Positions 4,856-4,901 of a DNA stretch of 11,449 bases are shown piece by piece; position 1 is the first letter of the stretch; the number at the start of each line of letters is the position of its first letter. The stretch is taken from IMG/VR virus record IMGVR_UViG_2703718771_000002. One strand, given 5' to 3'. Under the pieces are notes generated by a model. The model saw only the letters and a list, made by a program, of their open reading frames with translations. It had not been told where the DNA came from and ran no database searches. Origin of the DNA: a virus (lineage: Duplodnaviria; Heunggongvirae; Uroviricota; Caudoviricetes). A program made the position numbers and the translations under genes.

Positions 4856-4901
4856 GGCTCTTTAAACAACGTCGACTCTCGACTACGTGGCTGAAAAGCC
4901 A
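4856..4901 (+). promoter_or_regulatory. nutL: boxA GCTCTTTAAACAA (4857-4869), an intervening hairpin (4871-4883), and boxB hairpin UGGCU-GAAA-AGCCA (4888-4901)
   Basis: boxA matches the CGCTCTTTA consensus. boxB has a 5-bp stem with a GAAA loop, comparable to lambda boxB. It lies between pL and N. Confidence 0.6.

Follow-up and report, generated by a model that had tools for sequence, protein, structure and literature searches.

Why should an N-utilization (nut) site carry two hairpins behind its boxA, and which of the two would be bound by the antitermination protein N? The question is raised by a stretch of 11,449 nucleotides (nt) from a virus of the Caudoviricetes (IMG/VR record IMGVR_UViG_2703718771_000002), here called the window, a lambdoid phage's early regulatory region in inverted orientation. 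An initial annotation, made from the letters alone, had read nutL and nutR in it, each with a proximal hairpin in the spacer and a distal one with a GAAA loop, and had held only the latter to be conserved. In this study I show that the distal hairpin is conserved in sequence, but that the proximal one is conserved as well, in its structure, its position and its closing G-C pair, in every relative examined. The sites as such are already known: they are annotated in the public record of phage VT2-Sakai, and their layout was characterised experimentally in phage H-19B.

The two nut sites

A re-reading of both strands returned exactly the hairpin layout and the coordinates first annotated. At both sites the order is boxA, ending in ACAAC, a short hairpin, UACG, and a boxB with a stem of 5 base pairs (bp) and a GAAA loop. 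In the following list boxA elements and linkers are read from the sequence, energies are those of hairpins folded alone, and the last two lines give pairings from a predicted fold.

4856-4901, plus strand: nutL, whole site
4856-4870, plus strand: nutL boxA GGCTCTTTAAACAAC (RNA GGCUCUUUAAACAAC), including ACAAC, the 5' flank of the spacer hairpin; inside the VT2-Sakai nut feature
4871-4883, plus strand: nutL proximal (spacer) hairpin GUCGA-CUC-UCGAC, -3.5 kcal/mol; helix 1 of covariance model R1
4884-4887, plus strand: nutL linker UACG, 4 nt
4888-4901, plus strand: nutL boxB UGGCU-GAAA-AGCCA, 5-bp stem and GNRA tetraloop, -6.3 kcal/mol
2252-2207, minus strand: nutR, whole site
2252-2237, minus strand: nutR boxA CGCTCTTTGTAACAAC (RNA CGCUCUUUGUAACAAC); inside the VT2-Sakai nut feature
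2236-2225, minus strand: nutR proximal (spacer) hairpin GGAC-AUUC-GUCC, -3.8 kcal/mol
2224-2221, minus strand: nutR linker UACG, 4 nt
2220-2207, minus strand: nutR boxB UCGCU-GAAA-AGCGA, -5.7 kcal/mol
4856-4864 with 4894-4900, plus strand: predicted long-range pairing at nutL
2252-2244 with 2214-2208, minus strand: predicted long-range pairing at nutR

Both boxA elements resemble (C/U)GCUCUU(U)A (nutL GGCUCUUUA, nutR CGCUCUUUG; compare lambda CGCUCUUA and P22 CGCUCUUUA), and 3' of each lies a hairpin with a GNRA-type loop and a U-A closing pair, as is characteristic of boxB. The window contains a 20-nt block, CTACGTNGCTGAAAAGCNAG (= CUACGUNGCUGAAAAGCNAG), in exactly two copies, one per transcribed strand, with 0 occurrences expected (200 shuffles). 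This block exceeds the shared stretch first annotated, and the sole difference between the boxB stems of nutL and nutR is compensatory (G:C vs C:G). All four hairpins form as listed when folded singly (z from -1.9 to -4.6), although for hairpins this short each such result is weak evidence. A covariance model of the two-hairpin arrangement (R1) has exactly two matches in the window, at 2205-2244 on the minus strand (56.8 bits) and at 4864-4903 on the plus strand (56.5 bits), with E ~1e-19 each.

The placement is that of nut sites, with one site in each early operon (pL, pR) and each on the transcribed strand: nutL lies between pL (~4782-4810) and the N gene (5000), which is thus 3' of it, and nutR between the cro stop (2263) and cII (2121). 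VT2-Sakai, Stx2 II, phage 1717 and many O157 Shiga toxin (Stx) phages match the nutL/N segment at 99.6% identity, the cro-nutR-cII segment is 100% identical to several O157-type Stx phages, and by these identities the window is a VT2-Sakai/933W-type Stx phage. The VT2-Sakai record (AP000422) labels a 'putative N-utilization leftward' at the equivalent of 4856-4896 and a 'putative N-utilization rightward' at ~2212-2251; it also annotates pL, pR, the operators, cro, cII and N, the last described as 'similar to 933W L0080 and H-19B N'. It is therefore very probable that the two sites are nutL and nutR of a 933W/VT2-Sakai-type lambdoid phage and belong to the architectural class of H-19B, as the initial annotation had it with respect to their identity. 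Within that class, sequence comparison places them as a tetraloop sister variant and not as the H-19B specificity type.

Conservation of the spacer hairpin

Two samples of relatives were used. For sample (a), the scan of viral contigs used just the core of linker and boxB (TACGNNGCTGA[C]AAAGC), which leaves the proximal region unconstrained and gave 324 sites in 162 divergent pairs, or 40 distinct sequences. For sample (b), prophages were fetched by N-protein similarity alone, with an alignment of 6 N sequences, in order to remove the bias of the seed; relatives found with a single N protein are 97-100% identical and of little use for covariation.

The initial annotation would have been contradicted by proximal hairpins that are absent or unstructured in close relatives. 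Instead, a stem of at least 4 bp with its 3' arm ending directly before TACG is present at 40/40 distinct sites of sample (a), vs ~9% of shuffles, and the hairpin is likewise present at 18/18 sites of sample (b), with a stem length of 4-6 bp directly before the linker throughout. The sequence of these stems is not what is kept, as sample (a) contains 9 different pairs of arms, among them GGAC/GUCC, GUCGA/UCGAC, GAUUCA/UGAAUC, GGUGA/UCACC and GGCC/GGCC. Some relatives have the nutL stem of the window with CUC, ACUC, ACAC, GCAC, AUC or ACAU in the loop, others have wholly different stems at this position, and across relatives the loop measures 3-6 nt, with loop and stem sequence free to vary. 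When CAAY and TACG were taken as the sole anchors (22 distinct segments), pairs 1-4 of the proximal stem were paired in 88/88 cells, and each of pairs 2-4 came in 3-4 types. Pair 1 is G-C without exception, both in these segments (22/22) and in a model-based alignment (39/39). All wobble pairs in the stem are G.U on the transcribed strand (4/4), with 0 of the antisense type.

Covariation was counted on a 13-row MAFFT alignment of the cleanly alignable rows and on the 39-row model-based alignment; a MAFFT alignment of all nut variants was set aside, as it put GATTC-type stems and GACAA loops out of register. In helix 1, the proximal stem, 4/5 pairs show changes on both sides in these two alignments, and the covariation score of 0.58 compares with 0.12-0.15 in shuffles (0/500 reach 0.58) and with no more than 0.09 when the register is slid. 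Where the seed pattern occurs by chance, away from any nut context, the model is matched in its boxB half only. Relatives likewise keep the linker UACG and, 5' of the stem, the flank ACAAY, the latter at 40/43 distinct related sites though it lies outside the search pattern.

In sample (b), each of the 9/9 loci that combine a full N relative (38-97% identity) with sufficient flanking sequence carries exactly two strong model matches, one 5' of N and the other divergent, in prophages of Citrobacter, Atlantibacter, Erwinia, Enterobacter and Pantoea. The linker at these 18 sites is UACG in 17 and CACG in 1. Because of this covariation, and of the retention in both samples, I take the proximal hairpin to be a selected RNA structure of which the pairing and not the sequence is kept; the comparative analysis thus points to pairing as what matters in the spacer stem. 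The claim that only the GAAA hairpin is conserved therefore stands for sequence but not for structure.

One locus, L328 (JAJXBQ010000280.1), lies on a 3.5-kb contig labelled 'MAG: Segatella copri' (MAG, metagenome-assembled genome), and has both nut sites together with an N that is 97% identical to that of the window. It is almost certainly a fragment of an Escherichia phage that was mis-binned into a metagenome-assembled genome of the Bacteroidota.

The boxB loop and the N protein

In alignments of the relatives, the inner three pairs of boxB (G-C, C-G, U-A) are invariant, the U-A closing pair in 39/39 distinct relatives, and the two outer ones covary. The loop comes in two types, which are never combined within a locus: of the 162 divergent nut pairs, 108 are GAAA/GAAA, 54 are GACAA/GACAA and 0 are mixed. 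Each type goes with its own arginine-rich motif (ARM) in N. The GACAA loop pairs with ...GNSRSRRRERLKAKALANGV... (also given as GNSRSRRRERLKAKALANGVLAREE and RRRERLKAKALANGV) in a 127-amino-acid N of the H-19B type, and the GAAA or GCAA loop with ...G(T/S)AA(S/G)RRR(A/E)RRAxLQ.... The Atlantibacter prophage has GCAA at both sites, which is still a GNRA tetraloop, and its ARM is of the tetraloop type. The proximal loops do not track the ARM type. Because loop type strictly tracks the ARM of N while the proximal loops do not, the distal hairpin is boxB, the probable binding site of the arginine-rich motif, as initially annotated; in H-19B, the nutR boxB, which has the same stem, is protected by N plus NusA (PMC3526286). 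The lambda N protein reads the GNRA fold together with the closing U-A pair (PMC12027372), and residues of the P22 N protein, in its complex, are in contact with a looped-out base, the C of GACAA (PMC12550061).

The N gene product of the window matches Pfam PF25694 (N_peptide) with 108.7 bits vs a cutoff of 27.9 (E = 2.2e-31), and a PDB sequence search with it gave no match. Its ARM, FKGTAASRRRARRANLQS, is encoded at ~5018-5071 on the plus strand, and a GGAGG ribosome-binding site lies 5 nt 5' of the start at 5000. Outside the ARM, N can be ~80% identical across the loop classes, an estimate made by eye from the alignment rows of H-19B and g341c. From these alignments the ARM appears as a cassette that is swapped onto otherwise similar N bodies.

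The modular make-up of N goes further in some relatives. In the Pantoea prophages L336 and L337, and in some N open reading frames of viral contigs, the ARM and centre are those of the window but the C terminus is of the lambda type (...GRQIHAVQKVRGKSIPLI) instead of the P22-type CLPxVALYAAGxRKSKQxTAR, and N is therefore a mosaic of three modules: ARM, middle and RNA-polymerase-binding tail.

An in-frame upstream ATG (4928-5272, plus strand) would give an N of 114 amino acids (MQCRSNRLRRSFEIASPKFIREES-MSRK...), and this is so annotated in some records (AP005153). The 90-amino-acid product is favoured here, in view of the strong GGAGG before the ATG at 5000, the location of the upstream codons inside a leader hairpin, and the VT2-Sakai annotation. 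This leader, from the boxB of nutL to the start of N (4901-4999, plus strand), folds into one long hairpin of -40.7 kcal/mol (z = -4.3; 0/200 shuffles as stable), the base of which is just 5' of the GGAGG. Of 11 other leaders of the N family that were folded, 10 are similarly structured, including those of H-19B and g341c (z from -3.1 to -6.7), and that of Atlantibacter is weaker (z = -1.8). Most have a shared basal stem (...GUGAGUUUUGGGAUG / CAUCACCAAAAUUCAC...) with variable apical inserts. The arrangement is reminiscent of the RNase III-sensitive structure in the N leader of lambda that controls translation of N.

Possible functions of the spacer hairpin

How could the two hairpins work together? 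In the mechanism that I propose, the nascent transcripts (from pL into nutL; from pR through cro into nutR) would present the boxA-like element ending in ACAAC, a G-C-closed stem-loop of 4-5 bp, UACG, and the U-A-closed boxB. The arginine-rich N terminus of N would bind the boxB loop and NusA would join on the spacer, after which the complex would load onto RNA polymerase and allow read-through of downstream terminators. The proximal hairpin itself would be an architectural spacer, or 'reducer': its self-pairing would remove 12-16 nt of single-stranded spacer and thus bring ACAAC and UACG-boxB about as close together as they are in lambda-type sites, with the sequence of the hairpin free and its pairing obligatory. 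The initial annotation had suggested that the spacer hairpin could modulate assembly of the antitermination complex, an idea that Neely & Friedman reportedly put to experiment in H-19B in 2000. They are said to have found dyad symmetries in the nut spacers of this phage that are absent from other nut sites, and to have named the stem-loop the 'reducer'; disruption of one arm reportedly inactivates NUT and compensatory changes restore it, while deletion has little effect. The H-19B N protein reportedly requires NusA but not NusB, S10 or boxA. I infer that the 'reducer' mechanism applies here too, and the transfer of the H-19B results to the tetraloop variant would rest on a nutR hairpin that is identical in the two phages and on flanks that are nearly so. 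In H-19B, nutR holds 'two hairpins' (Muteeb et al. 2012, PMC3526286), and the antisense oligonucleotides used there match the spacer and boxB sequences.

Several points weigh against this account. For this tetraloop variant it would draw on experiments made in H-19B. Were the hairpin only a neutral means of hiding an insertion, and its deletion tolerated as reported for H-19B, one would not expect every relative to retain it at each of its sites, nor to keep a G-C closing pair without exception and a linker of always 4 nt. The invariance of TACG and of the boxB core within sample (a) follows from the design of the search, so that only the protein-seeded sample addresses it. Moreover, the nut RNAs of the window are predicted to fold to a competing helix between boxA and the 3' half of boxB, with a probability of only 0.02 for the boxB hairpin, and the two-hairpin form may therefore need bound protein or folding during transcription. 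The universal retention, the invariant closing pair and the fixed linker hint at a positive function beyond the 'reducer' idea. The proximal hairpin could be a positively selected element that docks or positions NusA (S1/KH), or that modulates Rho loading at nutR, and that might compensate for a weak or absent contribution of NusB/S10-boxA; I regard this as possible though doubtful, and it overlaps with the proposed mechanism rather than excluding it. The conserved ACAAY flank would fit such a role, as would the H-19B-type nutL that lacks a canonical boxA core (GGUGAAUAUACAAC) and retains the hairpin. The free variation of loop and stem, however, argues against sequence-specific recognition, and deletion of the dyad by Neely & Friedman reportedly had little effect on antitermination in reporters. 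Footprints in H-19B show spacer G residues protected together with those of boxB by N plus NusA/NusG, and spacer G residues bound and protected by Rho as well (PMC3526286), yet a role in Rho loading alone would not explain both sites, as nutL has no overlapping Rho terminator (PMC3526286) and still keeps the hairpin.

Alternatively, the competing helix may itself be the functional structure, a long-range switch in which the 5' part of boxA (GGCU.CUUU in nutL, CGCU.CUUU in nutR) would pair with boxB, in its loop and 3' arm, and mask it until N or Nus factors bind. This fold encloses the proximal hairpin and is the predicted minimum-energy structure at both sites of the window (-14.2 and -17.1 kcal/mol; stretches of 56-65 nt). 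At each site the first base of boxA, G in nutL and C in nutR, fits the local variant of the boxB stem, which maintains the helix at both, and the title of Neely & Friedman 2000 speaks of 'alternative NUT RNA structures'. The match is broken, however, in relatives with U, A or C as first base of boxA, and only 14/49 distinct sites of the family are predicted to fold in this manner, with two separate hairpins in the other 35. The energy of the fold is ordinary (z = -1.1; 26-29/200 shuffles at least as stable), complementarity to GAAAAGC is inherent in any generic boxA (GCUCUUU), which makes the pairing likely incidental, and co-transcriptional folding favours local hairpins. A switch of this kind thus seems unlikely, and the fold is probably incidental. 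Still less credible, to the point of being very improbable, is that the proximal hairpin is a second, boxB-like binding site for N or a DNA palindrome bound by a protein. Some relatives do have GNRA-like proximal loops (GUGA and GAGA, in nutL of the g341c/mEp234 type), and the nutL stem of the window contains GTCGAC, but the proximal loops are not conserved (CUC, AUUC, ACAC, CGGA, GUCC, AAUA and others) and show no link to the ARM type. The stems keep their pairing but are unrelated in sequence, whether nutL is compared with nutR or one phage with another, the wobbles on the transcribed strand only (4 vs 0) point to RNA rather than duplex DNA, and the footprints in H-19B place N on boxB (PMC3526286). 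Among the readings rejected are a terminator, as no U-run lies 3' of either hairpin, a chance match, another boxB, and an operator or DNA palindrome.

Genomic setting

The other features of the early region are the following.

823-1644, minus strand: O-like gene
1825-2121, minus strand: cII, open reading frame of the early region
2263-2478, minus strand: cro, open reading frame of the early region, with its stop at 2263
~2547-3248, plus strand: cI, open reading frame of the early region
4782-4810, plus strand: pL promoter, position carried over from the 'putative major leftward promoter' of VT2-Sakai (3533-3561 in the coordinates of the locus)
5000-5272, plus strand: N antiterminator gene, 90 amino acids (Pfam PF25694; VT2-Sakai annotation)

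On the pL transcript, whose start, CATCAGCAGGACGC, is similar to the starts in lambda and P22, nutL lies ~40 nt 3' of pL. Two more hairpins are found near nutR. The first, CCGCU-UAAUA-AGCGG (2256-2270, minus strand), is 3 nt 5' of the nutR boxA, and its loop contains the stop codon of cro (UAA, 2265-2263). This hairpin is particular to the cro allele of the window, and phages with another cro have ...GCAUAAGUAAC... there. The second, AUGCGU-UUCC-ACGCAU (2161-2176, minus strand), lies between nutR and cII, at the position labelled 'putative rho dependent terminator for pR transcript' in VT2-Sakai, and its sequence is the same in H-19B, whose nutR/tR1 region served as a model Rho-dependent terminator. 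An Rfam scan of the whole window with E up to 1 found no curated family for nut sites, and its only match, an RsmY-like one at 10911-11042, was dismissed as chance (18 bits vs a gathering score of 57).

Implications

Taken together, these observations could be read in a way that goes beyond the proposed mechanism, and I offer this joint reading only tentatively, as rather less likely than its failure. In it, the spacer hairpin would be a positively selected module rather than a tolerated insertion, and the family would be split into two naturally orthogonal classes of boxB and ARM. The module would be the hairpin with its G-C closing pair, 4-nt (U/C)ACG linker and ACAAY flank, kept wherever this N family has a nut site, in prophages of Escherichia, Salmonella, Citrobacter, Atlantibacter, Enterobacter, Erwinia and Pantoea, and it could be an element that positions NusA or Rho and substitutes for NusB/S10-boxA. 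What sets the classes apart would be a single C, looped out in boxB (GNRA tetraloop vs GACAA pentaloop), and each would have its own ARM cassette on near-identical N bodies. Among the papers searched there was no description of family-wide covariation of the spacer hairpin or of a joint switch of loop and ARM; both are modest additions that may be new.

Antitermination by N controls the delayed-early genes, and in Stx phages is therefore upstream of Q, the late genes and the production of Shiga toxin. That a spacer stem-loop is universal in this N family and strongly selected for pairing is a poor fit with its dispensability. The indel of one nucleotide in the loop together with a swapped ARM, giving two specificity classes, makes a compact natural example of co-evolution between an RNA and a peptide, and tethering tools could perhaps draw orthogonal N/boxB pairs from these classes. 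Either the covariance model or the motif ACAAY–hairpin–UACG–NNGCU-GNRA-AGCNN could help annotators to locate nut sites in this widespread group.

Comparison with known nut sites

The spacer hairpin had been thought foreign to the lambda layout, and a comparison with the nut sites of lambda, P22 and phage 21 confirms its absence from all three: model R1 has no match in these phages, whose spacers are unstructured and 8-14 nt long overall. Lambda resembles the window in its boxA (CGCUCUUA), followed by a spacer and a U-A-closed 5-bp boxB with a GNRA-type fold, in an N ARM of the RRRERRA type, and in the placement of its sites after pL and after cro. It differs in its spacers of 8-9 nt (nutR CACAUUCCA, nutL AAAAUUAA), in the C terminus of N, which is of another type, and in boxB pentaloops (GAAAA in nutR, GAAGA in nutL) with one base extruded (PMC12027372). 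The P22 homologue of N, gp24, is 40% identical to N of the window (alignment of five sequences) and has the same C-terminal motif, and P22 further shares an rrn-like boxA (GCUCUUUAAC), but it has spacers of ~8-10 nt without a hairpin (nutL UUCGAUGA, nutR CCAAUCUGAA), and a GACAA pentaloop at both sites, the C of which contacts N (PMC12550061); its boxB-left, GCGCUGACAAAGCGC, is identical to the nutL boxB of H-19B. Phage 21 shares the succession of boxA (GCUCUUUAAC), spacer and boxB hairpin at the same genomic positions, whereas its spacers at nutL and nutR are 12-14 nt long, its boxB has a 7-bp stem and a CUAACC hexaloop, and its N is of a different family.

The closest known system is H-19B (AF034975). 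A number of nutL sites of the H-19B type (L326, 2752-2810; L003, 154-215; L004, 1677-1745; all on the minus strand) have CACCAGGGCGGUGAAUAUACAAC where lambda has CACCAUGAAGGUGACGCUCUUA, and these sites without a canonical boxA core still keep ACAAC, the hairpin, UACG and boxB, which fits the dispensability of boxA that is reported for H-19B. H-19B itself differs from the window in several respects. Its boxB loop is a GACAA pentaloop and not a GAAA tetraloop, a single C apart at both sites, and it goes with the longer N (127 vs 90 amino acids) and with the ARM RRRERLKAKALANGVLAREE, which is 7 residues longer than RRRARRANLQSQ of the window, so that the combination of pentaloop and ARM found in H-19B is not found in the window. 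The nutL spacer stem is GAUUC(G)/(U)GAAUC vs GUCGA/UCGAC in the window, and the nutL boxA of H-19B (GGUGAAUAUACAAC) is without the canonical core GCUCUUU that the window has. The two N proteins nevertheless belong to the same Pfam family and end in a common P22-like C terminus, CLPNVALYAAGY(H/R)KSKQLTAR. At nutR (...CACAAUGGACAUUCGUCCUACGUCGCUGACAAAGCGA; elements ...CACAAU-GGACAUUCGUCC-UACG-UCGCUGACAAAGCGA) as well as nutL (...ACAACGAUUCGAAUAUGAAUCUACGGCGCUGACAAAGCGC; elements ...ACAAC-GAUUCGAAUAUGAAUC-UACG-GCGCUGACAAAGCGC), H-19B has the architecture of the window: a boxA-like element with ACAAY, a spacer stem-loop, UACG and a 5-bp boxB closed by U-A. The spacer hairpin of nutR, GGACAUUCGUCC, is identical in the two phages (AF034975; oligonucleotide RS663 in the supplement of PMC3526286), and the two also agree, fully or nearly, in the linker, in the UCGCU/AGCGA stem of boxB and in the tR1 region further downstream.

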